From an uncultured Gammaproteobacteria bacterium (lineage in GTDB: Bacteria; Pseudomonadota; Gammaproteobacteria; GCA-001735895), in NCBI GenBank assembly GCA_937984095.1, contig CALJYH010000121.1:1-55679 (forward strand): 55,679 bases of DNA, written 5' to 3'. Made by a program: the position numbers and the translations under genes. Of the stretch, positions 1,173 to 52,535 are shown one piece after another (within the stretch, counting starts at the first letter, position 1; each line of letters starts with the position of its first letter). Under the pieces are notes generated by a model. That model worked only from the letters and a program-made list of their open reading frames with translations, searched no databases and was not told the origin of the DNA.

Positions 1173-1253
1173 CAGTTTTAAATGCGCAGTATCTATTGGC
1201 GGGAATGAGTTACCGACATACTTACAAGGAAAGAAAAGACAACCTGCTCTTTT

Positions 1254-2725: not shown

Positions 2726-2811
2726 AGTTTACCAATAAGACAGTATTAGTGTAGTTCGTCGAGTTATCACAAAGACTCAATCGTTCTCAGACCCTAATCT
2801 TGATTTTAGGA

Positions 2812-2900: not shown

Positions 2901-2917
2901 AAATTTCAAAGCTCAAG

Positions 2918-11264: not shown

Positions 11265-11349
11265 GATGACGATCGATCGCAAACGCTCATTGCAACCGTG
11301 ATATTCTGAGCCGGGATCGCAAACAATCTGAATCCGGGAAGAGGCAACC

Positions 11350-29341: not shown

Positions 29342-30181
29342 ATGGAATTCAAGAATATACTCATTCACCTGGATCACAGCAGCGGCTGTGATAACCGGCT
29401 GGACATCGCTTTTAAGCTGGCACAGAAATTCGATGCGAAACTCGCCGGGTTATTTATCGTCCCTGATTACGTCGTGCCATCCTATGTCGAAGCCCAGATC
29501 AGTGTCGACTTGATTACCGACGTAACCGAAAAGGCAGTCGCACGGGCAAAGGAGACGCTGGCCGGATATCAAAAACTCGCTGATGATGCAGGGATCAAGA
29601 TGGAAGCTCATGTAGTGGAAGGACAGGTCATACCGATCCTGCGTGAGCATACGAAGTATTCAGACCTGTTGTTGCTGGGACAGGACCAACCCGATGACCC
29701 TGATAATTCAAGCTACGGGCTCGCCGATGCGCTGCTGTTTGAGGGCGCCTGCGCCTGCATGGTGGTGCCACATAGTGGGAAACTCGCAGTTCCGGGAAAA
29801 CGAGTGTTACTCACCTGGAATGCCAGCCGTGAATCCGCACGCGCGCTGCGCGAGGCTATGCCTTTTCTAAGCCGTGCGGAAACGGTCGTGGTACTGTCGT
29901 CGGAACCGAACGATGGCGATAGCGATACGGCGCGGGGTCATCCACACGCACAGGAACTCGACAGGCTACTAAAGTCGCATGGGATCGAGGCGGTTTCCAG
30001 CGGCATCAGCGATCCGGATATCAGTGCCACCGACGCGATCATCGGTCAGGCAGCCGATATGAATGCCGATATGATTATCATGGGTGCTTACGGTCACGCA
30101 CGCCTGCGCGAAATTATCCTGGGCGGGGTAACTCGTGATTTACTCAAGCAGTCACCCGTCCCTCTATTTCTCGCACACTAA
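29342..30181 (+). CDS. tandem universal stress protein (UspA family)
   Basis: 279 aa made of two Usp domains. The C-terminal domain has GAYGHARLREIILGGVT. GGAG lies upstream. Confidence 0.85.
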   Translation: MEFKNILIHLDHSSGCDNRLDIAFKLAQKFDAKLAGLFIVPDYVVPSYVEAQISVDLITDVTEKAVARAKETLAGYQKLADDAGIKMEAHVVEGQVIPILREHTKYSDLLLLGQDQPDDPDNSSYGLADALLFEGACACMVVPHSGKLAVPGKRVLLTWNASRESARALREAMPFLSRAETVVVLSSEPNDGDSDTARGHPHAQELDRLLKSHGIEAVSSGISDPDISATDAIIGQAADMNADMIIMGAYGHARLREIILGGVTRDLLKQSPVPLFLAH

Positions 30182-31032
30182 CCGCCGGCCTGCTGATTAA
30201 AAAAGGAAGCCCCCGCAGGAATTTCCGGGTTTTCCATATCGAAAGCCACGGAACGTATGCGACCGGGGTCTTCGCCATGCACCACTTGGCCTGAGTAAAC
30301 GCTCGGTACCGCACAAGGTACCAGGGGTATAGCATCCGCGGCGGTCAGGGTTGCGATATAAAGCGTACGCGGTCGCTGCGTCAGGTTTTCCGACGAAGCG
30401 TGCAGTGCGCGCGTATGCATCAGGCACAAACTACCGGCAGGACCCAGACACTCGATTGCCTTGGTTTCACACTCCGCGGCTATCCCATCATCGACTGCCC
30501 CGGTAAATTTTCCATGCTGCCACAGTGAGTGCAGCGGCCCACGATGCGAACCCTGAACAACCCGCGCCGGACCAATGGCGCTATCGATATCGTCGAAAAA
30601 AAGCATGGCTGTGATGCAGTCATCGTTGCTGTGGGGATCAAAGGTGAAATCCTGGTGCCATTTCACGGTAGTGCCGCTGCCTGGTAACTTGCTATTGAGC
30701 TTGGCATGATGAAAACGCAGGTTTTCGCCCAGCAGATCAGCTACCGCTTCGAGCATGGGCCCCTCCTCGATCAGCTTTAAAAACGCTTCCGAAATTTCCT
30801 CGGGAGACGCAACGCGGCGCAGGGCGGGAGCATCGGCACAATGACCTGGCTCCACGTCAAAACGTGGTCGACCATCCAGCATTTCACCGAAGGGCCCGTC
30901 ATGTTGGCGGGACTCCTCGATCCAGCGTTCGTGTTGCTGGCGGGCCGGCTCCAGGTCTGCAGCCGAATAAGCCGACACCACCACGACCACCCCGCTTTCC
31001 CAAAATTCCGCTATTTGCGCTTCACTTAACAT
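30178..31032 (-). CDS. phytanoyl-CoA dioxygenase (PhyH) family Fe(II)/2-oxoglutarate oxygenase
   Basis: HxD in VKWHQDF, distal His in HTRALHASSEN, and an RPRTL Arg. Clear paralogue of 50324-51181. Confidence 0.8.
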   Translation of the reverse strand: MLSEAQIAEFWESGVVVVVSAYSAADLEPARQQHERWIEESRQHDGPFGEMLDGRPRFDVEPGHCADAPALRRVASPEEISEAFLKLIEEGPMLEAVADLLGENLRFHHAKLNSKLPGSGTTVKWHQDFTFDPHSNDDCITAMLFFDDIDSAIGPARVVQGSHRGPLHSLWQHGKFTGAVDDGIAAECETKAIECLGPAGSLCLMHTRALHASSENLTQRPRTLYIATLTAADAIPLVPCAVPSVYSGQVVHGEDPGRIRSVAFDMENPEIPAGASFFNQQAGG

Positions 31033-31128
31033 AGTCTCACCATTCTACCGCCAATACCCTGTGGCGCTTAAATATTTTATGCTACCAATATTCCGCCCAC
31101 ATTGGTGAATGGCCTGAAAAAGTCGCTC

Positions 31129-31152
31129 CCAACCGGCGCATGCGCCGGTTGG
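31129..31152 (-). terminator. 24-bp perfect palindrome downstream of the ureohydrolase gene (possible terminator or operator)
   Basis: CCAACCGGCGCA/TGCGCCGGTTGG. It lies 39 nt after the ureohydrolase stop, with no immediate U-tract on the minus strand (GAGCGACTTTTT follows). Confidence 0.35.
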
Positions 31153-31190
31153 TCCATCCATGGAATCGCTTGGAGCGCGGCATCGAACTC

Positions 31191-32189
31191 CTAGACCGAT
31201 TGGTTTGTGTCGGCGATCAGGCTCAGGATTTCAAACATTACGGCGGTGGCGAAATGCGAGGTTTGCCGATTGGGGTGATCCTTGGTTGGCATCAGGCATA
31301 CCACGTCACCGCCGATGATGTTTTTCCCGCGCACGCAACGTAATAATTCCATCACTTCATCGACCTGGAAACCCTGGATACCACATTCGAGATTAGCCAC
31401 GCCGGGACATATGGTGGTATCCATGCAGTCCAGGTCAAAGGTGATATACAGCGGCGCATCGCCAATGCGATCGTTAATCAACTCCATGGTTTTCTCAGGC
31501 CCCAGTTCACGATAACGTTTGATCGGCACCACTTCGTAACCGAGATCAGAACTGGTTTTCCACCAGTCGAGCGTTCGTGGGTTGCCGCGCATGCCGATCT
31601 GCACGCTATGCGCGGTATCGATGTAACCGTCACGCACCAGGTAAGCCGCCCAGTGCGCCGCGGACTTGACCGCACCGAGGAAATGAGGAACCTGCTCGTA
31701 AGCATCGGTATGGGCATCGAAATGCAGAAATGCAGCCTTGCGCCCATCAGTCAAGCGAGCCTTGTCACCGGAAATGGCCTGCATGATGCCGCCCGTAATG
31801 GCATGGTCACCACCGATCGACACCGGGCGAGTGCCGGCGGCGTCTAGAGTGCGGTAAAAGTCGGTAATACGCTCGATGCAGCGCTCATTGTCATTCGCTT
31901 CCGGCAAGGGTACGTCACCCATGTCCCCAATGCGGCAGCTCTGCCAGGGATCGACCTGGAACTCTGAATGCACCCGGCGCGACATAGCGGAGACATCGCG
32001 CACCGCGCGCGGCCCGAGGTGCTGATCGCGTTCTGTAGTTCCGTTGCCGGTCGAATGCGGAACGCCGACCAGCGCAATATCAAGTTTTGCCGGATCACGC
32101 TCGATCGGGCATCTGAACAAGGTCGGAATATCCCACCAGTAAAGACCTTCCAGCATCATCCTGTCTTCGGCAGATAAGTTATCGCTCAT
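31191..32189 (-). CDS. arginase/agmatinase-family ureohydrolase (guanidino-compound hydrolase)
   Basis: Metal-site motifs SIGGDHAIT, FDAHTD and FDLDCMD. GAGGAA RBS. Confidence 0.85.
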   Translation of the reverse strand: MSDNLSAEDRMMLEGLYWWDIPTLFRCPIERDPAKLDIALVGVPHSTGNGTTERDQHLGPRAVRDVSAMSRRVHSEFQVDPWQSCRIGDMGDVPLPEANDNERCIERITDFYRTLDAAGTRPVSIGGDHAITGGIMQAISGDKARLTDGRKAAFLHFDAHTDAYEQVPHFLGAVKSAAHWAAYLVRDGYIDTAHSVQIGMRGNPRTLDWWKTSSDLGYEVVPIKRYRELGPEKTMELINDRIGDAPLYITFDLDCMDTTICPGVANLECGIQGFQVDEVMELLRCVRGKNIIGGDVVCLMPTKDHPNRQTSHFATAVMFEILSLIADTNQSV

Positions 32190-32207
32190 TTTAATTTCCT
32201 CGGTTTT

Positions 32208-33038
32208 TTAGTAGGCACGCTTTTGGGATGCGCCCTGGTATAAAATATCTGCCCAGTTGCGGTTTGCCTTTTCGCGCTCGTTAACTCCTTCGGGATCCAT
32301 ATCGTGGCTGGGCCGCTTGAGATAAACAAAATCCGGCTGTGCACAATTACCTCGCATCGGCAGCCAGTAGTTTTCACCCAGGGTCTGACGTGCACCGGCG
32401 GGCATGTAAGCCTGCATTGCGAATCCGATCCGCCGTTGTTGACTCCGGTTCGGCTGCGACCCATGGATTACCTTTGCGTGGTGCAATGACATTTGTCCGG
32501 GTTTTAGAATCAAATCGACTGCAGTTGATTCGTCGATGTTCTGTATTTCCTGGCCACGGGTCAGAATATTGTCTTGGTGGAAGGTTTCCTGGTGCGGTTG
32601 TATCGAATTCTGATGACTTCCCGGAATCATGCTCATACAACCGGTTTCACGATTACTTGCAGTTAACGCGACCCAGGAGGTGACATAGTTGTGCGGCGTA
32701 ATACCCATATAGGTCGCATCCTGGTGCCAGCTTACGAAGTGACTGGTTTGTGGTTCCTTGATAAACAATACGCTACCCCACAGCGCGAAGTCGCGTCCAA
32801 TCAAATCCTCGACCGCATCCAGAATTACGGGGTGATGTGCCAGTTCATCGAGAAATTTAAAGGCCAGGTGTGGATTGTTGCGATTCTCGGCATTTAGCTG
32901 ATCGGGATACTTCGCTTCCGCCGATCTCAGGCGCTGTTCGTATTCCGCGGCCTCGTCTTCGGAAATCACATGGATGGGCGCTATGAATCCCTGCTCGCGA
33001 TACTGCTCTACCTGTTGCTGCGAAAGTACTTTACCCAC
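32208..33038 (-). CDS. PhyH-family Fe(II)/2-oxoglutarate oxygenase
   Basis: FVSWHQDATY (HxD) and HHAKVIHGSQPNRS. GTG start. It lies 18 nt upstream of the ureohydrolase. Confidence 0.8.
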   Translation of the reverse strand: MGKVLSQQQVEQYREQGFIAPIHVISEDEAAEYEQRLRSAEAKYPDQLNAENRNNPHLAFKFLDELAHHPVILDAVEDLIGRDFALWGSVLFIKEPQTSHFVSWHQDATYMGITPHNYVTSWVALTASNRETGCMSMIPGSHQNSIQPHQETFHQDNILTRGQEIQNIDESTAVDLILKPGQMSLHHAKVIHGSQPNRSQQRRIGFAMQAYMPAGARQTLGENYWLPMRGNCAQPDFVYLKRPSHDMDPEGVNEREKANRNWADILYQGASQKRAY

Positions 33039-33125: not shown

Positions 33126-33329
33126 ATGAAAAAACTCGACAAACAAACGCTGATGGGTATCCGCGACCAGTTCGGCAGTTACGCCTGGGACGATGCGGAA
33201 ATTTCGGAGTTGGTGGACCCGCAGCTGGGTATCATCACCGGCTTCCAGGAACTTCTCGACCAGCTCGAGGTATTACGTAAAATCGACCTCGAAGCAATGC
33301 CCCCCGCCGGCGATATAATCACCAAATGA
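33126..33329 (+). CDS. GatC/AtzG-like small amidase partner
   Basis: 67 aa, acidic, ending ...LEVLRKIDLEAMPPAGDIITK as GatC-type subunits do. Its stop overlaps the amidase ATG as ATGA. Confidence 0.5.
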   Translation: MKKLDKQTLMGIRDQFGSYAWDDAEISELVDPQLGIITGFQELLDQLEVLRKIDLEAMPPAGDIITK

Positions 33330-34687
33330 GCGCCTCGCCGGCGTTTGCGCCGATCACCGAAATCAACCTGCGGTTGCGCAATGGCGATCTCAGCGCCATT
33401 GAATTGGTCAATTTGTATACGGACCGAATCGAGCGCTTTGGTGAGATCAGCAAGGCCTTTATCAGTCTCGATACCAAAAGCGCACTCTCAAAAGCAGAAA
33501 TAATTGATGAAAGTTTTAAAGATGATCTGCCTCTCAATGGAATTCCCTACGCCTGCAAGGACTTGTTTGATGTTAAAGGTCTGCCGACCACGGCAGGGTC
33601 GCAGGTGCTGCAGGATAACGTGGCGCAACAGGATGCGGCAGCGATCAAATGCATGAACCAGGCCGGCGCAATATGCATCGGCAAAAACAACCTGCACGAG
33701 TTTGCCTACGGCGCGACGGGTGAAAATACGCTTTACGGTACGGTGCCCAATCCCTATGACCAGTCACGTCTTGCAGGCGGTTCGAGCAGCGGTTCGGCTG
33801 CTGCGGTGGGCTTCGGCCTTTGCGCCGCGGCGCTCGGTACCGATACCGGTGGATCGGTTCGTGCACCCGCTGCCCTTTGCGGGCTGGTGGGTTTCAAACC
33901 AACCTACGGGCGCATCAGTACCGAGGGCGTCATACCTTATTCATGGACACTTGACCATGTCGGCACACTTACCCGTAGCGTGGCCGATGTTGGGCTTTTA
34001 TTTGATTCACTGGCGCTAGAGTCGCAACCTCCAGTGCAGAAAGGTCTGGATAATCTGACTATTGGAATCCCGGAGTCTTTCTTTTTTAATCGATGCGACA
34101 GCGAAATTCTAGACAGCATCGACGCGCTAATGAATTTTTTACGCCAGGCCGGTGCGAATCTCAAACCGGTATCCATGCCATCGATGGAATATACCCGCAC
34201 GGTATCACTGACAGTACAAATGCCGGAGGCACTGTCCTATCACAATCGCTACCTGGAACAGCGAGGGCATTTGTACAGCCAGGATTTCCGCGCGGGGCTG
34301 GCGCTGGGCCAATGCCTGCTTGCCGAGCAATATATCCGCGCCAAGCGTTTCATCGAAACCTACCGCAACGATATGGGCAAGGTATTTGCAGAGGTCGATG
34401 TGCTACTGACGCCCGCAACGCCGGTGATAGCGCCGAAAATCGGCGTGGTCGAGGTGACCGTAGATGGATATTCCGAGCCCGCCGGAAACGCAATAACCCG
34501 GTACACCTCTTTCTTTAACATGACCGGGCATCCGGCAATTACACTGCCTTGCGGCTTACACGGCGAGGGCTTGCCGATCGGAGCGCAGCTAGTCGGCAGG
34601 CATTTTGGCGACGAGCAATTAATCGACATTGCAGAACAGATTGAATCTTGCTACGACTTCGAACTGCCTCTGCCGAACCTGGATTAA
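33326..34687 (+). CDS. amidase-signature amidase (GatA/AtzE-like)
   Basis: GGSSSGSAAAV and catalytic Lys in PYACKDLFD. 453 aa. Confidence 0.85.
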   Translation: MSASPAFAPITEINLRLRNGDLSAIELVNLYTDRIERFGEISKAFISLDTKSALSKAEIIDESFKDDLPLNGIPYACKDLFDVKGLPTTAGSQVLQDNVAQQDAAAIKCMNQAGAICIGKNNLHEFAYGATGENTLYGTVPNPYDQSRLAGGSSSGSAAAVGFGLCAAALGTDTGGSVRAPAALCGLVGFKPTYGRISTEGVIPYSWTLDHVGTLTRSVADVGLLFDSLALESQPPVQKGLDNLTIGIPESFFFNRCDSEILDSIDALMNFLRQAGANLKPVSMPSMEYTRTVSLTVQMPEALSYHNRYLEQRGHLYSQDFRAGLALGQCLLAEQYIRAKRFIETYRNDMGKVFAEVDVLLTPATPVIAPKIGVVEVTVDGYSEPAGNAITRYTSFFNMTGHPAITLPCGLHGEGLPIGAQLVGRHFGDEQLIDIAEQIESCYDFELPLPNLD

Positions 34688-34770: not shown

Positions 34771-35517
34771 TTATCTAATACCTTTCACCATAAGCTGCTT
34801 TATCAGCTTTTCCATCTCAGCGTCGGAAAATCCTTCACGTTCAGTTAGCGAACTGCCAAGGTTGGCGCCGGCGAGTGCTGACGGGGATTCTTTACGAAAT
34901 AAACTCAGGGCCGCACCCTGCCCTTCGATCAAGTCACGCATCACCAGGGGGCTCAACATGCCGGCCATCTCCATCACCGGACACTGGATGATATTGTGCA
35001 AAGCCGTCAATAACTTGGGGCCGATAAACTGCGGCACCATTCTGCCCTGGTTCAGCCGTAACAGGCGTTCTGCGGCATCACAGTAAAAGTCGAGAAAGTG
35101 ATTACCGCGCCGAAACATTAATAATGCATTGTGCACCTTGTTATAGGTCCGCAGCTTTTCGGACTTGTCCTGCTGCACCCATATCTCTCTACCCACTGCG
35201 AAATCGGAATCAGGCAGTAAAAACTGACCTGAGTCAAAGATCAAAAAATCGGCATCGCACCAGATTACTCGGTCGTAACCTTCGGCCAGTCCCTGTTGCA
35301 AAATTTTGAGCCGCGCGAGATCACTTGCGATCACGGTTTGGGCACCAATTTTTTCAAACAACTCCGGCTCGATCAGGTCGAAGAGTTCGTCACCGATAAA
35401 ACACATTTCGAATTGATTATCCTGCGCCCAGCTAGTGACAGAATCCATGCAGAGCCGCAGCCACTCGAAAGGCAACGGATCACGATGGGACTGGATTACC
35501 AGGGTAGCGGACATCAA
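34771..35517 (-). CDS. hypothetical protein, glycosyltransferase-like DxD context
   Basis: ASDLARLKILQQGLAEGYDRVIWCDADFLIF resembles GT32-type sugar-binding regions. This is a weak call made by eye only. Confidence 0.35.
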   Translation of the reverse strand: MMSATLVIQSHRDPLPFEWLRLCMDSVTSWAQDNQFEMCFIGDELFDLIEPELFEKIGAQTVIASDLARLKILQQGLAEGYDRVIWCDADFLIFDSGQFLLPDSDFAVGREIWVQQDKSEKLRTYNKVHNALLMFRRGNHFLDFYCDAAERLLRLNQGRMVPQFIGPKLLTALHNIIQCPVMEMAGMLSPLVMRDLIEGQGAALSLFRKESPSALAGANLGSSLTEREGFSDAEMEKLIKQLMVKGIR

Positions 35518-36469: not shown

Positions 36470-36634
36470 ATGGGCGAATGTCCGGTATGTGCGGCCGAAG
36501 TCGAAGTGGCCAACGATGCAATATCTGGCGAGTTGCTGGTCTGCGAAGACTGCGGTGCCGAACTCGAACTAATCAAAACTGATCCGGTTGAACTGGCTGA
36601 AGCGCCTTCGGCCGAAGAGGACTGGGGTCAGTGA
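36470..36634 (+). CDS. lysW: LysW-type amino-group carrier protein
   Basis: 54-aa ORF absent from the track, [54 protein letters not shown]. It has a zinc ribbon (CPVC/CEDC) and an acidic tail. Its stop overlaps the lysX GTG as GTGA. Confidence 0.8.
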
Positions 36635-37467
36635 AAATCGGCCTGCTACATTCGCTGATCCGAAAAGAAGAGAAACTTCTGATCGAAGCATTTCAAAAAG
36701 CGGGTGTGGAACCGATCATGATCGACGATCGCAAGTTGATCATGGACTTTCACAGCGCCCCCGATATCGACATCCTGGTCGAACGTTCAATCAATCACTC
36801 ACGCGCACTGCATGCGCTGCGGCTGTTCGAAAGCGCCGGAGTATGCTGCGTCAACTCACACAGGGTCGCACAGATCTGCGGTGACAAGTTGCTGACCACC
36901 GCCGCGCTGAAGGATCATGGTATCGCGCAGCCCGAAAGCAGGGTCGCTTTTACCGAGGAGTCGGCGCTTGCCGCGATCGAGGAACTGGGCTACCCGGTAG
37001 TTTTGAAACCAGCCGTTGGCTCCTGGGGTAGATTGCTTTCCAAGATCAACGATCGCGATGCCGCCGAGACGGTACTCGAGCACAAGACCGTGCTCGGCAG
37101 CTACCACCACTCAATTTTTTATATTCAGCAATATATCGACAAGCAAGGTCGCGATATCCGCAGTTTCGTGGTCGGCGATGATTGCATTGCTGCCATTTAC
37201 CGTAGCTCCGATCACTGGATCACCAACACCGCCCGCGGCGCCCAGGCGAGTAAGTGCGAGGTGACTGCCGAGGTCGCTGAAATTTCGCTGGCAGCGGCGA
37301 AAGCAGTGGGCGGCGGGATTGTCGCGGTCGACTTGTTCGAAAGCGACAACGGCTTGCTGGTCAACGAGGTCAACTACACGATGGAATTTCGCAACAGTAT
37401 CGATACCACGGGGGTCGATATTCCCCAGGTCGTCGCAAACTACGTCATCGGCCTTGTGAAACAATGA
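36631..37467 (+). CDS. lysX: LysX-type ATP-grasp carrier-protein ligase (RimK family)
   Basis: [55 protein letters not shown] and [26 protein letters not shown] closely match Thermus LysX as I recall it. Confidence 0.9.
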
Positions 37468-38486
37468 TCAAGGTCTCGATTGTCGGAGCCTCGGGTTACA
37501 CCGGTGGCGATTTACTGCGCATCCTGTTATTCCACCCGCAGGTCGAAATTCAACAGGTTACCTCGGAGCGGCACGCGGGCCGACTGGTTTCCAGTGTGCA
37601 CCCCAACCTGCGTAAAATCTGCAGACACAAATTTGTCTCCGTTGCCGAACTCGAGCCTTGTGACGTGATGTTCCTGGGGTTACCGCACGGACAAATGATG
37701 AATCGCCTGGCTGAATTTGAAGGCCTGGCCGACACCTTGATCGATTTATCTGCCGATTTTCGACTGCGCGACAGCGACGCTTTCGAAACCTGGTATGGAA
37801 AACCACACAGCTGCCCGCAAAAACTCGCCGAGTTTGTCTACGGCATTCCAGAGCTTCACCGTGCGGAAATGAAAGCTGCGAAAAGAATCTCGGGTGCTGG
37901 CTGTAACGCTACCGCGACCATTCTCGCGCTGCATCCGCTTTACCAGGCCGGCGTAGTCGAATCGGCCGTGGTTGAGGTAAAAGCCGGCTCCAGCCAGGGT
38001 GGCAATGTAGTCAGTGAAGGCAGCCATCATCCGGAACGCAGCGGTGCAGTGCGCTCCTACAAACCAACCGCCCATCGTCACCTCGGGGAAATCCAGCAGG
38101 AACTGGGCGCAGAAAATATTCATTTCTCGGCGACCTCGATCGAGATGGTGCGCGGAATCCTGGCAACCTGTCATGTTTTTCTGAACCAGGACCTGGAAGA
38201 AAAAGATATCTGGAAGCTCTACCGCGGCGCCTACGGAAACGAACCTTTTATCCGCATCGTCAAGGAGCGCAGCGGTATCCATCGTTATCCGGAACCGAAA
38301 ATTCTGGCTGGCAGTAATTACTGTGATATCGGCTTCGAGCGCGACCCGCACAGTAATCGACTGGTCGTGATCAGCGCACTGGATAACCTCATGAAAGGCG
38401 CGGCGGGCCAGGCAGTGCAGGCCTTCAATATTGCGCAGGGATTCGACGAAACCACGGGACTCGAATTTCCTGGACTGCACCCCTGA
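37464..38486 (+). CDS. lysY: LysY/ArgC-type carrier-linked acyl-phosphate reductase
   Basis: [21 protein letters not shown] fold and catalytic Cys in [13 protein letters not shown] overlap with lysX. Confidence 0.85.
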
Positions 38487-38498
38487 TTCTGCACCGAC

Positions 38499-39134
38499 AT
38501 GTGTCGCATTCTCTATGCTCGAGCCGAGACGCAATTTTCGATTGCGGAGTTACTCGCACCCTTCGCCGAGGTCTCACGCGATAGCCGCGAGTTCCAGGGT
38601 CACGGTTGGGGCTGTGCCTGGCGCGAAGACGACGGTTGGCATCAATACCACGATATCCGCCCGATCTGGGAGGATGATCTGGAGCAATTTGGGCACACTC
38701 AGCTGTTACTGGTGCATGCGCGCAGCGCGTTTCGCGATGAGGGTATCGTCATCGAAAACAATATGCCCTTCTCCGACGGTGAGTCGATTTTCATCTTCAA
38801 TGGTGAGTTGCGCGGAGTACGAATTAAATCGGAAGGTCGTATCGGTGCAGAAAAAATCTACAACTATATTCGCCGCTTCGACAAGGGCGATAAATGCCAG
38901 GCCACCAATAAGGCTGTCGACATAATCAAAAAACGCAGTGCCTACGTGCGCGCGATGAATATTATTCTCTCCGACGGAAAACAATCGTGCCTGTCCACCA
39001 GTTACGGCGAAGACCCAGAATACTTTCAAATGCATCAGAAACATCACCAGGACCTGCATCTGGTATGCTCGCAACCGTTCGCTGGAGACAGCGACTGGTC
39101 CACAATCGCTAACAACACGACGATCGAATTATGA
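38499..39134 (+). CDS. class II (Ntn) glutamine amidotransferase-like protein
   Basis: N-terminal Met-Cys (MCRILYA), HGWGCAW, LLLVHARSAFRDEG, NNMPF and FIFNGEL follow the layout of YafJ/EgtC-type Ntn amidohydrolases. Its stop overlaps the lysZ ATG. Confidence 0.7.
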   Translation: MCRILYARAETQFSIAELLAPFAEVSRDSREFQGHGWGCAWREDDGWHQYHDIRPIWEDDLEQFGHTQLLLVHARSAFRDEGIVIENNMPFSDGESIFIFNGELRGVRIKSEGRIGAEKIYNYIRRFDKGDKCQATNKAVDIIKKRSAYVRAMNIILSDGKQSCLSTSYGEDPEYFQMHQKHHQDLHLVCSQPFAGDSDWSTIANNTTIEL

Positions 39135-39922
39135 TGCTGATAAAAATCGGCGGCGGCGAACGAATTAATCTCGAAGCCGCAATCGAAGATCTGGCGACAC
39201 TCGAGCAGCCATTTGTCATCGTGCATGGGGCCAACGTACTACGCGATCAACTGGCGCAACAACTGGGTAAGGAAAAGACGGTACTCACTTCTGTCTCAGG
39301 ATACAGCAGCGTTTTTTCCGATCAGGATGCAATCGATATCATCATGATGAGTTACTCGGGCCTGCGTAATAAGCAGATCGTTGAACTGTGCCAACGTAAT
39401 GAAATCAACGCAGTCGGTCTGACCGGCCTCGATGGTCGCCTGGTCCAGGGGGAACGTAACAAGGGCATCCGTGTGCGTGAAAACGGTAAGACCCTGATCA
39501 AGAGGGATCTTTCGGGTAAACCGCGCTCCATTAACAGCCAGTTATTGACGCTATTGCTGGAAAGCGGTTACTGCCCGGTGCTGACGATCCCCATCGCCGA
39601 CGAAAAAGGCTTTGCAATAAACTCGGAGAACGACGATATCGTTGCCCGGATTGCGAGCGCACTCGAAATCGATACGGTGATTCAATTGATCGAAGCGCCC
39701 GGGTTTCTCGATGATCCCGCTGACGAAACCTCGCTGGTAACCAGCATGAGTCTCGGTGAGCTAGAGCGTCGTGAAGCGAACGTCGAAGGACGTATCAAAC
39801 GCAAGCTGCTCGCGCTGACACGACTTTGCCAGGACGGCAAAACCCGGGTCATCATCGCCGATGGCCGCCGCGAGCAACCCATTATCAGCGCACTCGAAGG
39901 TGCCGGGACACATATCTCATGA
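39131..39922 (+). CDS. lysZ: LysZ/ArgB-type carrier-linked amino acid kinase
   Basis: Amino-acid-kinase fold: LIKIGGG, VIVHGAN, GLTGLDG. Confidence 0.85.
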   Translation: MMLIKIGGGERINLEAAIEDLATLEQPFVIVHGANVLRDQLAQQLGKEKTVLTSVSGYSSVFSDQDAIDIIMMSYSGLRNKQIVELCQRNEINAVGLTGLDGRLVQGERNKGIRVRENGKTLIKRDLSGKPRSINSQLLTLLLESGYCPVLTIPIADEKGFAINSENDDIVARIASALEIDTVIQLIEAPGFLDDPADETSLVTSMSLGELERREANVEGRIKRKLLALTRLCQDGKTRVIIADGRREQPIISALEGAGTHIS

Positions 39923-41073
39923 CTGATTACAAAGCACTCGAACACGAATATGGCATACCGTTACAGGCAAAACGCGACCTGGTTGCGGTCCGTGGAAACG
40001 GGGCCTTGCTTTACGACGAGCAGGATCGGGAGTATATCGATTGCGCCGCCGGAATCGCCGTCGCCTCACTCGGGCACTGCCATCCAAAGCTGATCGTAGC
40101 GATCAAGCAACAGGCCGAAACCCTGATTACCTGCCCTAACATCATGTACAACGACGTGCGCTCGAAACTGCTCAAAAAACTGGTAGAGGTAACCCCCGAG
40201 AGCCTGACTCGCGCCTATTTATGCAACTCGGGTGCCGAGTCGATCGAGGCCGCACTCAAGTTTGCGCGCCTGCACACCGGGCGGACCAACTTTGTCACCG
40301 CGATGCGCGGTTTCCACGGTCGCACCATGGGTGCGGTCAGCGCCACTTACACACCAAAATATCGCGAAGCATTTCAGCCGCTGATTCCCGGCTTCGACTA
40401 CGTACCCTTCAATAAGATCGAAAAGCTCGATGCCGCGGTGAACGACAATACCGCGGCCGTTATGTTCGAGCTGGTGCAGGGTGAAGGCGGCGTCAATCCG
40501 ATCCAGGCCGACTATCTCGCGGCCGTGCGCAAGCTCTGTTCCGAGCGTGGAGTATTGCTGATTATCGATGAAATCCAGACTGGATTCTGTCGAACCGGGA
40601 GATTCTTTGCCTGTAATCATTTCGACCTGCAACCCGACCTCATGTGCGTGGCCAAGGCGATGGGTGGCGGTGTACCCATTGGCGCCACCCTGCTTAATGC
40701 CGACATTAATATCGAGCCCGGGCTGCATGGTACGACCTTCGGCGGTAACCCGTTGGCCTGTGCCGCGGCGTTAGCGGCGATCGATGTCTATCAGACCGAT
40801 AACCTGGCACAACGGGCTGCGGAGCTGGGTGATTATTTCGAACAACAGCTAAACGTTGCCGACCTTTCCCAGGTGCGTGCATTGCGCCGACTCGGCTTGA
40901 TGATCGGTATCGAGCTCAAGCAAAAGGTGCAGGGCAAGCTGGCAGAGTTACTAGAGCATCGCATCATCGCGTTGCCGGCAGGGCCTAACGTGATCCGAAT
41001 GTTGCCGCCGTTAGTCATCGAGAAAGAACAGATTGACCGGGTCGTCAAGACCTTACGCCAGTTGCTGGCTTGA
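39919..41073 (+). CDS. lysJ: LysJ/ArgD-type class III aminotransferase
   Basis: [29 protein letters not shown], and PLP Lys context [11 protein letters not shown] 39919 overlaps the lysZ stop. The track extension back to 39826 is rejected. Confidence 0.85.
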
Positions 41074-41256
41074 CCTGCTTTTAGCAGATACGGATATCCA
41101 CGTCGACAATACCGGGGAAAGTTGACGAGGATCACATTTTGTATGTTTATTACTATCTGCTGGTTTTTGTCCATTCGATACTCTTATATAATCCCCTTTT
41201 TTATATGATGGAACATTCGAAACGTGTCCAGTCCCGCTAATCAAGTTGAATTAAAT

Positions 41257-42861
41257 ATGACCTCTACTCCGGATCTCACTCCCTACGGTATCAGCGACAC
41301 CATTGAAGTCCTGTATAACCCCAGTTACGAGACGCTGTTCGCCGAAGAAACAGCCGCTAATCTGAATGGTTTTGAAGTGGGTCATTTGACCGAGTCGGGT
41401 GCAATCGCCGTCGACACCGGTGACTTTACCGGCCGTTCTCCCAAGGACAAGTACCTGGTGCGTGACGACACGACCCGGGACCAGATCTGGTGGTCGGACC
41501 AGGGTGAAAACGACAACAAGCCGATCAACATCGAGACCTGGAACACCCTGCGTCAACTGGTTACCGACCAGCTATCGGGTAAAAAACTGTTCGTGGTCGA
41601 TACCTTTTGTGGCGCCAGCCCCGAAAGCCGTCTCAAGGTAAGGTTCATTACCGAGGTTGCGTGGCAGGCCCATTTCGTCACCAATATGTTCATCCGGCCC
41701 AACGTCGAAGAACTAACCGATTACGTGCCGGATTTCGTCGTGCTTAACGGGTCCAAAACGTCAAACCAGAATTATGCGGCGATGGGACTGAACTCTGAGA
41801 ATTTTGTAGCGTTCAACATGACGCAAGGAATGCAGATCATCGGTGGTACCTGGTATGGCGGTGAGATGAAAAAGGGCATGTTCTCGATGATGAACTACCT
41901 GCTACCGCTCAAGGGAATGCCTTCGATGCACTGTTCGGCTAACGTCGGAAAAGAAGGTGACGTCGCGATTTTCTTCGGGCTTTCCGGAACCGGCAAAACC
42001 ACCCTGTCTACCGATCCCAAGCGCCGCCTGATCGGCGATGATGAGCATGGTTGGGACGATGAAGGAATTTTCAATTTTGAAGGCGGCTGTTATGCCAAGG
42101 TTATCGATTTAAGCGCAGAAGACGAACCCGATATCTATCGCGCGATCCGCCGCGATGCATTGCTGGAAAACGTGGTGGTCAACAATGAAGGCAAAATCGA
42201 TTACACCGATAGCTCGAAAACCGAGAACACGCGGGTGTCTTACCCGATTTATCACATTGATAATATCGTCAAACCCGTGTCCAGGGCCGGTCACGCCGGT
42301 CGTGTCATATTTCTGACCGCCGATGCCTTTGGCGTACTGCCCCCGGTTTCAAAATTAACACCTGAACAGGCACAGTATTACTTTCTTTCCGGTTTTACCG
42401 CCAAGCTGGCCGGCACCGAACGCGGCATCACCGAGCCCACCCCGACTTTTTCCGCCTGCTTTGGCAAAGCCTTCCTGTCGCTGCACCCAACCCGGTATGC
42501 CGAGGTACTAAATAAGAAAATGGATCAGTTTGGCAGCCAGGCGTACCTCGTGAATACCGGCTGGGACGGCAGTGGTAATCGTATTTCGATCAAGGCAACA
42601 CGCGCGATAATTGATGCAATTCTCGATGGATCTATCGACAGCGCGGAAACCGTAACGCTACCAACCTTCAACCTGAGTGTACCTACCAGCCTGCCCGCGG
42701 TGGACGTAAAAATTCTGGATCCGCGTAACAGTTATGACGATGGTTCCGAGTGGGAATCAAAAGCAGCCAGGCTGGCTTCCCTGTTCATCGATAATTTCGG
42801 GCAATACACCGATACCGATGGTGGCAAGCAGCTGGTATCAGCAGGTCCATTACTCAATTAA
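41257..42861 (+). CDS. pckA: phosphoenolpyruvate carboxykinase (ATP)
   Basis: [27 protein letters not shown] and [12 protein letters not shown]. The first ATG, at 41257, is used as the start. Confidence 0.95.
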
Positions 42862-42982: not shown

Positions 42983-44980
42983 ATGAAAAAGGCTGGTTTC
43001 AAGGTTCTGGAAAACGAGTGGATTACGCTGTCCGACGGGCGTAAATTATCGGCCCGGATCTGGATGCCTGAAACTGCCGCGAAAACGCCATTACCCGCAA
43101 TCCTCGAATATATTCCCTACCGCAAACGCGATGGCACTGCACAGCGCGATGAAAGTACCTACCCAGCATTTGCCGAGGCGGGTTATATAGGGGTTCGTGT
43201 CGATATCTCGGGTACCGGTGAATCTGATGGTGACTGGGACGACGAATATTCAGCCCGCGAACTGGCCGATGGCTGTGAGGTCATCGAATGGATCGCAAGC
43301 CAGGACTGGTGCGATGGCAATCTTGGGATGATGGGGATTTCCTGGGGTGGTTTCAACAGCCTGCAGATTGCCGCTTTAAAACCGTCAGCGCTAAAGGCCG
43401 TAATCTCGATCGGCACTACGGTCGATCGTTATAACGACGATATTCATTACAAGAATGGTTGCCTGCTCTACTCCAATTTCTTCTGGTCGAGCACGATGCT
43501 TTGCTACGCATCCCGCCCGCCCGATCCCGACCTGGTTGGAGATAGCTGGCGCGAAACCTGGTTACAGCGTTTGAACACACAGCCGTTTCCGCTGCAGGCC
43601 TGGCTGGCCCATCAACGCAAAGACGATTACTGGAAACATGGATCGATCAACGAAAATTACAATGATATCGAGATACCCGCACTGGTAATCTCGGGTTGGG
43701 CCGATGGTTATATCAATGCGCCACCTGCGGCGGCAACCCATTTAAAGAACGCCAAGGCAATTAATGGCCCCTGGATTCACAAGTATCCACATTTTGCACT
43801 CCCGAGACCGCGCCTGGATTTCCTCAAAGAAGCAATCAACTGGTGGGACAAGTGGCTCAAGCGTATCGATAACGGTGTCGAGGGTTTACCTGCCTACCGG
43901 GCCTACATCCTCGAAGACGCCAGGCCGCTATTGCATCACGAAACCGAACCCGGCCGTTGGGTCTCGGAAGCAGAACTCCCCTCACCCGATACCCGGGAGC
44001 GCAACTACTACCTGGCTCCGAATCGGCAACTGCTCGATATTCCCGGCAGAACCAGCGAAAAGAAATTGACCTCACCCCAGGATTGCGGCACCAGCTGTGG
44101 CGAGTTTTTTACACTGAAACCCGATGGCGAAATGCCTTCCGACCAACGCCGGGATGACTCCGGATCGCTCGTATTCGACAGCGGCAAGCTGCATCAACCC
44201 ATCGAAATCCTGGGACGTCCCAGGATTCGATTAAAAGTTTCTATCGATAAACCGCTCGGAAATATCGCGGTACGCTTGAATGATATTCATCCCAATGGTG
44301 AAGTTTCGAGGGTTAGCTGGGGCGTTCTGAATCTCGCGCATCGTAACGATAACGAAAATCCCGAGCCGATGACCCCGGGTCAACTGGAATCGATTGAGAT
44401 CGAACTGAATGAATGCGGTTATCGCTTCATGCGCGGTCACAAGATGCGCATTGCGGTCTCCAATAACTACTGGCCAATGATCATGCCACCACCCGAAATC
44501 GTCACCGTCACCATTAAACTCGGGCCCGACGCGTTTGTGACATTGCCGGTACGGGCAGGCGTTGATGTCTACGAAGAGCCCGAGCCCGAGGATCAAATTC
44601 CGCTGCCAGCCTACGAAATCAAGGAGCCCGGGCTGAGTCGACGCTGGATCGAGCGAAATTTTCAGACCGGGGAATCGCACTACCGGATTATCGATGACAC
44701 CGGCGAGATCGAAGTGCCCGGTAACGGTATGTGCATGCGACACAGTCATGATGAACGCTGGACCATAGCCGCGGATGACCCACTCAGCCATCGTTCACTG
44801 AGTCGTTATATTAGCTGGATGCGTCGCGGTGACTGGTCGATCAGAACCGAATCGGAAAGCGAGTTTCGATGCGACGCGGATAATTTTTATATCAAGGCCA
44901 AGGTGCGTGCCTACGAGGGTGAAGAACTGCTAAACGAACGTGACTGGGAGGAAATCACTATTCCTCGAGACCACATTTAA
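42983..44980 (+). CDS. CocE/NonD-family (S15) hydrolase
   Basis: LPAILEYIPYRKRDG, nucleophile elbow GISWGG, and a large C-terminal beta domain. 665 aa. Confidence 0.8.
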   Translation: MKKAGFKVLENEWITLSDGRKLSARIWMPETAAKTPLPAILEYIPYRKRDGTAQRDESTYPAFAEAGYIGVRVDISGTGESDGDWDDEYSARELADGCEVIEWIASQDWCDGNLGMMGISWGGFNSLQIAALKPSALKAVISIGTTVDRYNDDIHYKNGCLLYSNFFWSSTMLCYASRPPDPDLVGDSWRETWLQRLNTQPFPLQAWLAHQRKDDYWKHGSINENYNDIEIPALVISGWADGYINAPPAAATHLKNAKAINGPWIHKYPHFALPRPRLDFLKEAINWWDKWLKRIDNGVEGLPAYRAYILEDARPLLHHETEPGRWVSEAELPSPDTRERNYYLAPNRQLLDIPGRTSEKKLTSPQDCGTSCGEFFTLKPDGEMPSDQRRDDSGSLVFDSGKLHQPIEILGRPRIRLKVSIDKPLGNIAVRLNDIHPNGEVSRVSWGVLNLAHRNDNENPEPMTPGQLESIEIELNECGYRFMRGHKMRIAVSNNYWPMIMPPPEIVTVTIKLGPDAFVTLPVRAGVDVYEEPEPEDQIPLPAYEIKEPGLSRRWIERNFQTGESHYRIIDDTGEIEVPGNGMCMRHSHDERWTIAADDPLSHRSLSRYISWMRRGDWSIRTESESEFRCDADNFYIKAKVRAYEGEELLNERDWEEITIPRDHI

Positions 44981-45099: not shown

Positions 45100-45786
45100 A
45101 TGGCCAGATTACCGCGGTACGCGATTAAAAATCAGCCGCAGCATATAATTCAACAGGGACGAAACGGGCAACAAATCTTCTTTGAAGAACAAGATTACCA
45201 GTATTTCCACGATTGCCTCGAGGCTGCAGCATACAATTATCATCTCAAAATACATGCCTATGTGTTGATGCCTAATCACGTGCATCTGCTGGCAACACCG
45301 GGTAACACCGACAGTATCTCACGAACCATCCAGTCCATTGGTCGAAACTACGTCCAATACTTCAATGAGTGCATAGGTGGCAGTGGCACGATCTGGGAAG
45401 GGCGTTACCGGGCGACCGTCGTTGACAGCAAGAGCTATTTGCTGACCTGCAGTCGCTACATCGAGTCAAACCCGGTTCGAGGTGGACTGGTTAAAAAACC
45501 GGCGGATTATCGCTGGAGCAGCTACGCGCATAACGCGCTTGGGAAGGCCGAAGAGATGATCAGCGCGCACCAGGAGTACCTGAAACTGGGTAACAATGAT
45601 AAGGAACGGGTAAATGCCTACCGCGCCCTGTTCAAACAAAGCCTGTCCAGCCAAACCGTGCAGCTAATCACCGAAACCGCGCTTAAAGGTTGGGTACTGG
45701 GTGATAGCAAGTTTGCACGCAAAATCGAAAAGCTCAGCGGTCGACGCGCCTTCCAGCTGCCCAAGGGCCGTCCCCGGGGTACTTGA
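45100..45786 (+). CDS. REP-associated tyrosine transposase (RayT, IS200/IS605-like Y1)
   Basis: HUH motif in MPNHVHLLATP and catalytic Tyr context SRYIESNPVRGGLV. 228 aa. Confidence 0.8.
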   Translation: MARLPRYAIKNQPQHIIQQGRNGQQIFFEEQDYQYFHDCLEAAAYNYHLKIHAYVLMPNHVHLLATPGNTDSISRTIQSIGRNYVQYFNECIGGSGTIWEGRYRATVVDSKSYLLTCSRYIESNPVRGGLVKKPADYRWSSYAHNALGKAEEMISAHQEYLKLGNNDKERVNAYRALFKQSLSSQTVQLITETALKGWVLGDSKFARKIEKLSGRRAFQLPKGRPRGT

Positions 45787-50323: not shown

Positions 50324-51181
50324 TTACTGGGCCTGCTGGTCGAAAAACGATGCCGTCCTTGGCAATTGAGGTGACGGTATATTGAATGCACAACTGCGGA
50401 TATGGTTGGTCTTCACGCCACGCACGATCTCGCCCTGGTGTTGGCTCGGAACCGGATTGGGAGTACAGGGCACCGCATCCTCAGCCGAGTAGACCGCGAT
50501 GAAAAGGGTTCGTGGCCTGGTCGACAGGTTCGGAGACGAGCCGTGTAACAGGCGGGTGTGCATAAGGCATACCGATCCGGCCTTGCCGGTGCAGGTCACC
50601 GCGTTGTCGAGACACTGACGGGTCACTGCATCATCGACCGCACCGGTAAAAATCCCGTCATGCCATAGATCGTAGATTTCGCCGCGATGCGATTCCGGCA
50701 ACACCTGCAACGGACCATTCTCTTCGGTCACTTCATCCACCATGAGTAGCGCGGTTACCAGGTCATCGTTGCTATGCGGCGTAAACGGAAAATCCTGATG
50801 CCATTTGACTGCCGTCGCCGCTCCCGGCAGCTTGGAATTGATCTTGCTATGGTGGAATTTCAGGTTGGGTCCGATCAGGTCGGCAACACAGTCGGTCATC
50901 AGGCTGTCACGCATCACCTGGTAGTAATCATTCGATATCTCGGTAGGCGCATTGACACGACGCAGCATGGGTCTGTCGGCGCTATGGCCGGACTCGAGAT
51001 CGAAACGGGCACGACCATCGAGAGTTTCACCATAGGCCACCTGGTGCGATTTGCTTTCCTCGACCCAGGCGGCGAATTGCTCGCGCAGTGCTGCAAGTTG
51101 TTCAACGCTAACCGCATCTTCAACCAGCAGATAGCCCTGTTCGTCAAAAAACTGTCTCTGCTCGTAATTTAGAGTTGCCAT
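50324..51181 (-). CDS. PhyH-family Fe(II)/2-oxoglutarate oxygenase (paralogue of 30178-31032)
   Basis: VKWHQDF, PHSNDD, FTGAVDD, CLMHTRLLHGSSPN, RPRTL. Start taken at ATG 51181 (MATLNYEQRQFFDEQGY), matching the paralogue's N-terminus. Confidence 0.8.
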   Translation of the reverse strand: MATLNYEQRQFFDEQGYLLVEDAVSVEQLAALREQFAAWVEESKSHQVAYGETLDGRARFDLESGHSADRPMLRRVNAPTEISNDYYQVMRDSLMTDCVADLIGPNLKFHHSKINSKLPGAATAVKWHQDFPFTPHSNDDLVTALLMVDEVTEENGPLQVLPESHRGEIYDLWHDGIFTGAVDDAVTRQCLDNAVTCTGKAGSVCLMHTRLLHGSSPNLSTRPRTLFIAVYSAEDAVPCTPNPVPSQHQGEIVRGVKTNHIRSCAFNIPSPQLPRTASFFDQQAQ

Positions 51182-51332
51182 CACCAGCACCTTAAAATCA
51201 GGAATATAACGGAAACCCGTGGTTGAAACCAATTCGCTCTTCAGGCTACCGATATTGAAATCTTGAAGTAAAGCCTGATTGACATCACATCGCATCCACC
51301 TTACTAATGTCGTTTCGACGGGGGACAATGAG

Positions 51333-52535
51333 ATGACATTAAAATCGACAAAAGACAAAGGCATTCAGACGCTTTCGATTCACGCTGGCGAAAAACCTGA
51401 TCCGACCACCGGGGCTTCAGCGCCGAGCCTGGTGATGTCGAGCACCTTCGTGGTCGACGAGGAAATCAGCTTTTCAGCCAACAACCTGACTGCGGAAACC
51501 CCGTTTGTTTACACGCGTTGGGATAACCCTACCACGCAGCAACTCGAGCAAAAACTCGCGGTACTGGAACAGGCAGAGGCGTGTATCGCATTTGCGTCGG
51601 GCATGGCCGCCAGCACCTCGGTTATGCTTGCGCACCTAAGCCAGGGTGATCACCTCATCATTAGCAACACCAACTACCCCGGCACCGCCGAATTTGCACG
51701 CGACACGCTGACGCGTCTCGGGATCGAGGTCACCCCGGTAGACACTTCGGAGCTCGCGAATGTCAGTGCCGCGATGCGCGACAATACGCGCATGATCTGG
51801 CTTGAAACGCCATCCAACCCGCTGCTGCGTATTTCGGATATCAAGGGCGCTGCCGACATCGCGCAAGCGCAAAACGCACTGCTGGTGGTCGATTCCACTT
51901 TTGCGTCACCGATAGCGACACGCCCGCTTTCCCTCGGTGCTGACCTGGTGATCCATTCGCTGACCAAGTACATCGGCGGGCATGGTGATGCCATGGGCGG
52001 ATCGGTTTGCGGCAGCCAGGCCTTGATCGGGCCATTACGCGGTGAGGCACTGGTACATTACGGGGGCGTCATCAGCCCGTTCAACGCCTGGTTGATCATG
52101 CGCGGCATGGCGACCCTGCCGCTACGCATGCGCTGCCACGAAGAAAACGCGCTTGCGATAGCCCGATTTCTAGAAACCCATGAGCAAGTTGAAAAAGTGT
52201 TATATCCCGGCCTCGAATCGCACCCGCAACATGCGCTTGCCAAATCTCAAATGGATAACTTCTCTGGCATGATCAGCTTTCGCACCGCGAATGCCACCGG
52301 GATTGCCGAGCGCATGATGCAAAAACTCGAAGTCATTCATTACGCGGTCTCGCTCGGTCACCATCGAAGCCTGGTTTACCTGATGCAAACCGCGGACCTG
52401 ATCGGTTCATCTTATCGCCTCGAAAACGAGGAGCTCGAAAAGTATCGCGACGTGGCGGGCGAAGGCGTGTTTCGTCTTTCGGTAGGCCTCGAAGATGCCA
52501 GTGATTTGATCAGGGACCTCGAGATGGTTCTGTGA
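51333..52535 (+). CDS. Cys/Met-metabolism PLP enzyme (cystathionine gamma-synthase / methionine gamma-lyase family)
   Basis: IHAGEKPDPTTGA, YTRWDNPT and PLP Lys in SLTKYIGGHGD. Start at ATG 51333. Confidence 0.85.
   Translation: MTLKSTKDKGIQTLSIHAGEKPDPTTGASAPSLVMSSTFVVDEEISFSANNLTAETPFVYTRWDNPTTQQLEQKLAVLEQAEACIAFASGMAASTSVMLAHLSQGDHLIISNTNYPGTAEFARDTLTRLGIEVTPVDTSELANVSAAMRDNTRMIWLETPSNPLLRISDIKGAADIAQAQNALLVVDSTFASPIATRPLSLGADLVIHSLTKYIGGHGDAMGGSVCGSQALIGPLRGEALVHYGGVISPFNAWLIMRGMATLPLRMRCHEENALAIARFLETHEQVEKVLYPGLESHPQHALAKSQMDNFSGMISFRTANATGIAERMMQKLEVIHYAVSLGHHRSLVYLMQTADLIGSSYRLENEELEKYRDVAGEGVFRLSVGLEDASDLIRDLEMVL

Follow-up and report, generated by a model that had tools for sequence, protein, structure and literature searches.

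A LysW-type operon from an uncultured gammaproteobacterium, and an EgtC-like Ntn protein that probably takes the place of LysK in a widespread lineage of such clusters

The operon and its gene content

We analyzed a stretch of DNA of 55,679 nucleotides from an uncultured gammaproteobacterium (contig CALJYH010000121.1 of GenBank assembly GCA_937984095.1, hereafter the window), which carries an operon for a LysW-type amino-group carrier protein (AmCP) and five further proteins, among them an N-terminal nucleophile (Ntn)-like protein encoded between LysY and LysZ (Table 1). With a probability of roughly 60%, we consider it to be an alpha-aminoadipate (AAA)-to-lysine operon of a distinct and widespread lineage, in which an EgtC-like Ntn amidohydrolase replaces the release enzyme LysK and permits the use of carriers that end in glutamine.

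A preliminary description of the window had proposed a LysW amino-group-carrier operon of six co-directional genes. All of these open reading frames (ORFs) are present and curated models agree with the named families; LysX, LysZ and LysW even pass curated models of the LysW pathway, which supports the proposed nature of the operon. The hidden Markov model (HMM) searches suggested at that time identified five of the six proteins by curated models, and gave weak matches only for the Ntn protein, namely EgtC TIGR03442 (45 bits; cutoff 218.65) and Pfam GATase_6 (E 0.006), with no others. It was also said that the genes are joined by start/stop overlaps. Four 4-nt overlaps do fit the ORF coordinates, whereas the LysY/Ntn junction is a 12-nt gap.

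The carrier contains the zinc-ribbon residues Cys4, Cys7, Cys25 and Cys28 and an acidic tail (pI 4.05). It ends in EEDWGQ with CAG (Gln) as the final codon and thus has no terminal Glu. For LysJ, the best NCBIfam model was LysJ_Th_th (NF042418; 450 bits, under its cutoff of 700), and its specificity for a carrier-bound substrate is suggested by context. The longest LysJ ORF begins with a TTG at 39826; the ATG at 39919 is the start chosen by gene callers on identical contigs. As the preliminary description had noticed, no LysK-type M20 gene is nearby: none was found in the whole window by phmmer with E. coli ArgE and the M20 protein of a Desulfobacterales locus (L028, see below) as queries. The same applies to genes forming homocitrate or AAA, since homocitrate synthase (HCS), homoaconitase and homoisocitrate dehydrogenase (HICDH) were not found across the window. 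Outside the operon, the window contains no arg, dap or lys genes.

Table 1 Genes of the LysW-type operon and other features of the window
Feature	Position	Strand	Description
LysW-type amino-group carrier	36470-36634	+	54 aa; PF21344 Zn_ribbon_LysW 64 bits; TIGR01206 59.7 bits (cutoff 53.2)
LysX, ATP-grasp ligase	36631-37467	+	TIGR02144 342 bits (cutoff 275.6)
LysY, [LysW]-aminoadipate-6-phosphate reductase, ArgC family	37464-38486	+	TIGR01850 391 bits; PF01118; PF22698
Ntn-like protein, class II glutamine-amidotransferase fold, stand-alone	38499-39134	+	211 aa; Met-Cys start
LysZ, [LysW]-aminoadipate kinase	39131-39922	+	NF010659 248.5 bits (cutoff 223)
LysJ, [LysW]-aminoadipate semialdehyde aminotransferase, class III, ArgD family	39919-41073	+	PF00202 388 bits; TIGR00707 446 bits (cutoff 410)
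PhyH dioxygenase / arginase-fold protein / PhyH dioxygenase	30178-33038	-	3.4 kb upstream of lysW
67-aa ORF and AtzE-family amidase	33126-34687	+	ORF overlaps start of amidase by 4 nt; amidase 33326-34687, NF006631 335 bits (cutoff 461)
ORF without Pfam match	34771-35517	-	248 aa; between amidase and CDGSH iron-sulfur protein
PckA, ATP-dependent phosphoenolpyruvate carboxykinase	41224-42861	+	adjoins operon
S15 peptidase	42983-44980		downstream of operon
Y1 (IS200/REP-associated tyrosine) transposase family	45100-45786	+	PF01797; 4 kb downstream of operon
PhyH protein	50324-51364		third PhyH gene of the window

Fold and active site of the Ntn protein

An AlphaFold2 model of the Ntn protein was built from 64 diverse homologues (predicted local distance difference test 97.1, predicted TM-score 0.93) and compared with the PDB by Foldseek. 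The first thirteen matches were EgtC chains (E 5e-14, TM 0.84, root-mean-square deviation 2.5 A, ~20% identity), followed by the uncharacterized stand-alone proteins 1te5 and 3mdn (YafJ-like) and then by the glutaminase domains of GlmS, PurF and GFAT. At the sequence level, a search of the PDB with a shallow Ntn profile gave noise-level matches only, and a deeper profile found 3mdn (E 9e-10) and EgtC (E 4e-8). The substrate of EgtC is gamma-glutamyl-hercynylcysteine sulfoxide, whose gamma-glutamyl amide bond it hydrolyses; this bond is of the same type as that from the gamma-carboxyl of LysW Glu54 to the N-alpha of lysine.

Cys2, Arg75, Asn101-Gly102 and Gly116 are invariant in the 64 homologues. 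In alignments with 3mdn and E. coli GlmS, Arg75 corresponds to the Arg that holds the substrate alpha-carboxylate and Asn101-Gly102 to the oxyanion hole, and Gly116 is aligned with the Asp in the S/T-D-S/T-E motif (G-S-T-D-S-E-V in 3mdn; s-e-t-D-t-e-v in GlmS). In class II amidotransferases, the Asp of this motif binds the free alpha-amino group of glutamine. The apparent loss of this Asp together with retention of the carboxylate-binding Arg would fit a substrate whose glutamyl group is the C-terminal residue of a polypeptide, and the Ntn protein may therefore act on a glutamyl residue that ends a peptide chain.

Occurrence of the Ntn gene and lack of adjacent LysK genes

To characterize the distribution of the cluster, two sets of loci were collected. 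One genome per species (GTDB) was scanned with the Ntn protein, which gave 49 species-level loci whose +/-10 kb flanks were examined, and metagenomes were scanned with a LysX alignment, which gave 80 further loci. The identical operon occurs on ~40 metagenome contigs. The Ntn protein has 3068 homologues in a large protein collection, the closest being proteins of uncultured Gammaproteobacteria named 'hypothetical protein' or 'glutamine amidotransferase', and its family is small and compact (a library of 1.8 billion representatives contains 318 matching clusters at 50% identity, nearly all of 200-250 aa). Besides Gammaproteobacteria (including Granulosicoccaceae, Acidiferrobacteraceae and the sponge-associated Poriferihabitaceae), the 49 loci came from Calditrichota, Desulfobacterales and other Thermodesulfobacteriota, Ignavibacteria, Melioribacteraceae, Bacteroidota, Planctomycetota, Dehalococcoidia and KSB1, as well as from archaeal metagenome-assembled genomes (MAGs) labelled Woesearchaeota, Methanosarcinales and Heimdallarchaeota.

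More than 70 loci, among them that of the cultured Caldithrix abyssi, have the gene order X-Y-Ntn-Z-J, and they represent about ten phyla of bacteria and archaea. In all 49 species-level loci, as far as their flanks extend, the Ntn gene adjoins LysZ, and it lies between LysY and LysZ wherever the locus has LysY; in related loci LysY is directly upstream of it without exception, and in every locus its neighbours are LysW-pathway genes. We also built a neighbour-joining LysZ tree with E. coli ArgB as the root, in which all 69 Ntn-type sequences formed one clade with no intruders, and the LysZ of the window lies inside it. On the basis of this single exclusive clade, the exchange of LysK for the Ntn gene probably occurred once, and the cluster probably spread later across phyla and domains. 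The preliminary description had presented the cluster in a proteobacterial setting and had listed its Ntn product as amidotransferase-like. The synteny survey revealed a monophyletic cluster type that is not peculiar to one proteobacterium but spread across many bacterial and archaeal phyla, and the Ntn gene, far from incidental, is its most diagnostic member and the likely substitute for the missing LysK.

Two types of cluster could be distinguished in the metagenome set: W-(HCS)-X-Y-Ntn-Z-J without M20, and W-X-Y-Z-J-M20 without Ntn. Counting only loci that reach at least 1.3 kb past lysJ and scoring M20 genes within 1.5 kb, we found an M20 gene in none of 43 Ntn-type loci versus seven of eight non-Ntn loci (Fisher p = 7e-8). 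Three more LysK-type contexts, which were found via their carriers (a Chloroflexi-like MAG, Candidatus Uabimicrobium amorphum and one other), also have an M20 gene and lack the Ntn gene.

Two distant members of the Ntn family, each with 27% identity to the window protein, are placed differently: in L148 (1769-2437) the gene occupies the canonical lysK place, in the order Z-J-Ntn, and in L149 (1015-1683) the gene lies between lysJ and carA. Both are still near lysJ, which suggests that the association outlasts rearrangement. The carA neighbour in L149 hints at a possible further role of this release enzyme, in a carrier-based ornithine/arginine route.

Several other variants of the cluster were observed. 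A Desulfobacterales chromosome (CP070746; L028 10001-17063) has an Ntn-Z-J trio with no lysW, lysX or lysY within 10 kb upstream. In two archaeal MAGs, LysZ and LysJ form one ORF of 687 aa (L057, ~10680-12633) or 679 aa (L059, ~1168-3168), which is an apparent fusion or possibly a sequencing or assembly error. A metagenome contig close to the window (L062) has a tandem pair of lysW genes (3169-3324 and 3529-3690) before lysX.

Carriers ending in glutamine

All characterized LysW and ArgW proteins end in EDWGE, and the E54A mutation abolishes function in Natrinema (PMC10433800). The Gln terminus of the window carrier is not an isolated case. Among the 34 carriers of the species-level loci, 14 end in EDWGQ and 20 in EDWGE, with both forms within the same phyla, and 22 of the 120 best LysW-profile matches end in Q (98 in E). 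The last codon of 113 lysW genes was GAG in 43, GAA in 42, CAG in 17 and CAA in 10, with one outlier; the carrier terminus thus tolerates Glu or Gln only, and both Gln codons are used. All 22 Gln-terminated carriers with a readable context belong to Ntn-type clusters (19 from the sets of loci, Caldithrix abyssi and two others), whereas Glu is the last residue in each of the 11 LysK-type carriers (p = 0.027).

ATP-grasp ligases activate a carboxylate, and therefore a Gln-terminated carrier must first be deamidated. However, such maturation cannot be the sole function of the Ntn protein, because about two thirds of the Ntn-type clusters (41 of 60) have a Glu-terminated carrier and nevertheless keep the gene; only about one third have EDWGQ. 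We infer that the Ntn enzyme both hydrolyses LysW-gamma-lysine and deamidates Gln-terminated carriers. As LysW-Gln and LysW-gamma-lysine would give the same gamma-glutamyl thioester, a change from E to Q would be nearly neutral in the Ntn lineage only.

Substrate and product

LysX-type enzymes carry a five-residue signature that differs with the substrate: F-I-T-NS in the strictly AAA-specific enzyme of Thermus, I-Y-V-GF in ArgX and Y-I-T-NA in the bifunctional enzyme of Thermococcus (Nishiyama group, PMC12998189). We aligned the window LysX to three solved structures (Thermus, Thermococcus and Sulfurisphaera), which reproduced the published reference motifs. The signature F-I-T-NS was found in the window LysX and in 33 of 37 LysX proteins from Ntn-type loci, and none of them had I-Y-V-GF or Y-I-T-NA. 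The window LysX also has the carrier-recognition motif GSWGR and is 52% identical to Thermus LysX 3vpd (E 4e-87). On this signature, which is neither that of ArgX nor that of the bifunctional enzyme, we rejected an ornithine/arginine assignment.

Further evidence comes from orthologous clusters. A homocitrate-synthase-like gene lies directly after lysW in nine non-proteobacterial species-level loci and in metagenome loci, and the layout W-HCS-X-Y-Ntn-Z-J is found both in metagenome loci and in Caldithrix abyssi. Two loci have the full order W-HCS-HacA-HacB-HICDH-X-Y-Ntn-Z-J, and three Melioribacteraceae loci have a class I aminotransferase after lysJ. Orthologous clusters that include AAA-forming genes thus come from Calditrichota, Ignavibacteria-Melioribacteraceae, Bacteroidota and archaeal MAGs, and the window proteins are 51-73% identical to those of the clusters that embed HCS, HacAB and HICDH. 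Together with the F-I-T-NS signature, these genes point to the AAA-to-lysine branch, which for the window follows by orthology. The preliminary description had left both substrate and product open; the LysX signature, a LysZ that passes the aminoadipate-kinase model and the HCS/HacA/HacB/HICDH genes of orthologous clusters now favour AAA and lysine, which is the best reading for the window operon.

It should be noted that in archaeal Ntn-type loci the F-I-T-NS LysX has another LysX paralogue directly upstream (L046 7296-8126; L049 7287-8117; L056 6424-7257). The signatures of this paralogue (F-V-I-QY, F-I-I-VY and L-V-E-DY) match no known type, and it may charge the same carrier with a different amino acid, which might be glutamate for ornithine.

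On the basis of these observations, the following route could be proposed. The carrier would be translated with a C-terminal Gln, and the Ntn protein, after loss of its Met, would attack the gamma-carboxamide with Cys2; release of ammonia and hydrolysis of the thioester would yield the active, Glu-terminated carrier. LysX would then use ATP to join AAA through its alpha-amino group to the gamma-carboxyl of the terminal Glu. The distal carboxyl would be phosphorylated by LysZ, reduced to the semialdehyde by LysY and transaminated by LysJ, giving LysW-gamma-lysine. Finally, the Ntn enzyme would attack the same gamma-glutamyl carbonyl, releasing free lysine and regenerating LysW-Glu.

Comparison with known systems

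One of the closest known systems is the LysW AAA route of Thermus thermophilus, with which the operon has five of six components in common, including the carrier fold, the acidic EDWG tail, the LysX signature and GSWGR, and the kinase, reductase and aminotransferase families. In contrast with the Thermus system, the window has no LysK and has an EgtC-like Cys-Ntn gene between lysY and lysZ, its LysZ belongs to a separate clade, its host is a mesophilic uncultured gammaproteobacterium, and its carrier ends in Gln where a Glu has been called essential (PMC10433800). With EgtC (PDB 4zfj, 4zfk and 4zfl), the Ntn protein shares the N-terminal Cys nucleophile, the stand-alone form of ~210-230 aa and, as proposed here, a gamma-glutamyl amide bond as target. 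However, it scores far under the equivalog cutoff, no egt genes are nearby, the position of the alpha-amino-binding Asp appears to be Gly (as judged via 3mdn and GlmS), and its proposed substrate is a protein C-terminus and not a small dipeptide.

The LysK/ArgE-type M20 enzymes of Thermus, Sulfolobus, Thermococcus and haloarchaea have the task that is proposed here for the Ntn protein, namely hydrolysis of the gamma-glutamyl-lysine isopeptide and recycling of the carrier, and the position after lysJ is shared by the Ntn genes of distant clusters. On the other hand, they are dinuclear-metal peptidases of an unrelated fold, whereas the Ntn protein would form a cysteine thioester intermediate; the two are mutually exclusive in clusters, and a metallopeptidase is not expected to make Gln-terminated carriers usable. 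The ArgW/ArgX ornithine pathway of Sulfolobales and haloarchaea differs in that its I-Y-V-GF or bifunctional Y-I-T-NA signature is not found in the window LysX. AmCP clusters of the DADH type are known for vazabitide, ficellomycin and azinomycin of Streptomyces and for the ser cluster of Serratia sp. ATCC 39006, which is a gammaproteobacterium (PMC11726168). They likewise combine a LysW-like carrier with LysX-, LysZ- and LysY-like enzymes, but start from glutamate and add transketolase-type and sugar-aminotransferase-type genes, whereas the window LysX is of the AAA type.

Arguments against the proposed function and alternative explanations

Several points weigh against an AAA-to-lysine operon with an Ntn release enzyme. 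The gene identities, synteny, fold, residue patterns and co-occurrence statistics are direct results, and every catalytic step, the identity of the substrate and both activities of the Ntn enzyme rest on inference from them. The Asp-to-Gly replacement was read from weak alignments (hhalign probability 5% for GlmS; HMM E 9e-10 for 3mdn) rather than from an inspected superposition. Both samples of loci were selected by similarity to the Ntn and LysX proteins of the window, and the co-occurrence tests, including the Fisher test that gave p = 7e-8, ignore shared ancestry. A LysK/M20 gene could be present elsewhere in the Ntn-type genomes, beyond the window and the +/-10 kb flanks. Of the 49 species-level loci, L028 alone has any M20 gene; it lies 3.4 kb downstream, separated by genes on the opposite strand, and is the sole case of Ntn/M20 proximity. 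As to the substrate, no HCS, homoaconitase or HICDH gene was found in the window or in the flanks of any gammaproteobacterial relative. Moreover, Gammaproteobacteria are expected to make meso-diaminopimelate for peptidoglycan, which would make a second lysine route partly redundant.

One alternative is that the Ntn protein only matures or repairs the carrier (Gln to Glu), and that the product is released by a LysK/M20 enzyme encoded elsewhere. It would account for Gln-terminated carriers being found solely with the Ntn gene, and an unlinked lysK outside the examined flanks is possible, as the M20 gene 3.4 kb from the Ntn-Z-J trio of L028 may illustrate. We nevertheless regard it as unlikely in view of the Ntn-type clusters that have a Glu-terminated carrier and all keep the gene, of an adjacent LysK in seven of eight clusters without Ntn versus none of 43 with it, and of distant family members that occupy the usual place of lysK after lysJ. 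A still less probable view, consistent with the source annotations ('class II glutamine amidotransferase') and with the conserved catalytic Cys, Arg and Asn-Gly of the superfamily, takes the Ntn protein for a true glutamine amidotransferase subunit that passes ammonia from free glutamine to a pathway enzyme, for example, for amidation of the acyl phosphate that LysZ produces. However, the protein lacks a synthase domain, and the LysW enzymes are its only conserved partners. In structure it is nearest to EgtC, a stand-alone hydrolase, and to YafJ-like proteins rather than to amidotransferase domains, and an invariant Gly takes the position of the Asp by which free glutamine is anchored through its alpha-amino group. 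The nitrogen is already accounted for by the reductase and the aminotransferase, and both the exclusion of LysK and the Gln termini would be left unexplained.

It is also conceivable, though improbable, that the carrier receives glutamate or some other acidic amino acid and that the cluster yields a non-proteinogenic amino acid or, for arginine, ornithine. AAA-forming genes were not found near the cluster in the host or other Gammaproteobacteria, and Thermus LysZ and LysY do take LysW-Glu, at reduced rates (PMC12998189). One distant Ntn gene adjoins carA, and an arginase-fold gene lies 4 kb upstream of the window cluster; the upstream neighbours, including this gene, are however kept in close relatives only. 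The F-I-T-NS signature of LysX, the match of LysZ to the aminoadipate-kinase model and the 51-73% identity to proteins of clusters that embed HCS, HacAB and HICDH all argue against glutamate as substrate. A cluster for non-proteinogenic amino acids like those of Streptomyces, which the preliminary description had brought up, was rejected on Pfam content, because no DADH-type tailoring genes, whether transketolase-type or sugar-aminotransferase-type, were found in the +/-10 kb flanks. Thus, lysine formation from AAA with release by the Ntn enzyme appears to be the explanation that best fits the data.

Neighbouring genes in the window

The genes named earlier for the neighbourhood (cbb3 oxidase, a Crp/FNR regulator, a HemN-like gene, a sulfatase and PckA) were all found. 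Rfam searches of the whole window gave no match above the gathering score, and a lysine riboswitch upstream of lysW was not detected even at E <= 1. Conservation of the upstream neighbours of the operon is limited to close relatives, and the gene group of two PhyH dioxygenases and an arginase-fold protein occurs in the closest relatives only.

The 67-aa ORF and the AtzE-family amidase upstream are arranged like the small and large subunits of AtzG-AtzE or GatC-GatA. Homologues of the amidase lie beside the LysW cluster upstream in the clade of the window and directly after lysJ in Poriferihabitaceae (L040, L043, L053 and L055), and a functional tie to the cluster is possible from this placement. 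As a candidate release enzyme the amidase was rejected, since it adjoins the cluster in 10 of 49 loci from two gammaproteobacterial lineages only, whereas the Ntn gene is universal. The S15 peptidase downstream was set aside as well, being kept in the closest relatives only. The 248-aa ORF without Pfam match is kept in six related loci, and the transposase-family gene is kept in the contigs of close relatives. PckA adjoins the cluster also in L017, L040, L043 and L053, on either side and on either strand; this adjacency in several gammaproteobacterial lineages may be plain conserved synteny with no functional link.

Implications

The genome paper of Caldithrix abyssi lists 'LysWXZYJ and Hcs' at Cabys_3146-3153 and remarks that the lysine pathway could include 'non-orthologous gene displacements', but leaves the Ntn gene unnamed (PMC5317091). 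Two GapMind papers mention no substitute for lysK. In the literature searched, no paper ties LysW or AmCPs to a glutamine amidotransferase, an Ntn hydrolase or a Gln terminus; most subscription journals were outside this search, and an earlier description is possible.

With about even odds, these clusters represent a second, unrecognized lineage of the LysW pathway, in which a Cys Ntn gamma-glutamyl amidohydrolase displaced LysK and the release enzyme also activates a Gln-terminated 'pro-carrier', which would be usable because the enzyme works through a gamma-glutamyl thioester. Many uncultured marine Gammaproteobacteria, Desulfobacterota, Calditrichota, Ignavibacteria and several archaeal groups may make their lysine in this way. 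If so, current annotation, which would score the pathway in these groups as incomplete with lysK missing, would have a recurrent gap filled in many phyla, and the working rule that AmCPs must end in Glu would be overturned. Most members of the EgtC/YafJ family have, to our knowledge, no known function, and the family would gain a protein-directed member. Carrier-protein lysine synthesis is usually ascribed to thermophiles and archaea; in the present data, it appears to be widespread in mesophilic bacteria of marine and sediment habitats and to move between domains as a unit.

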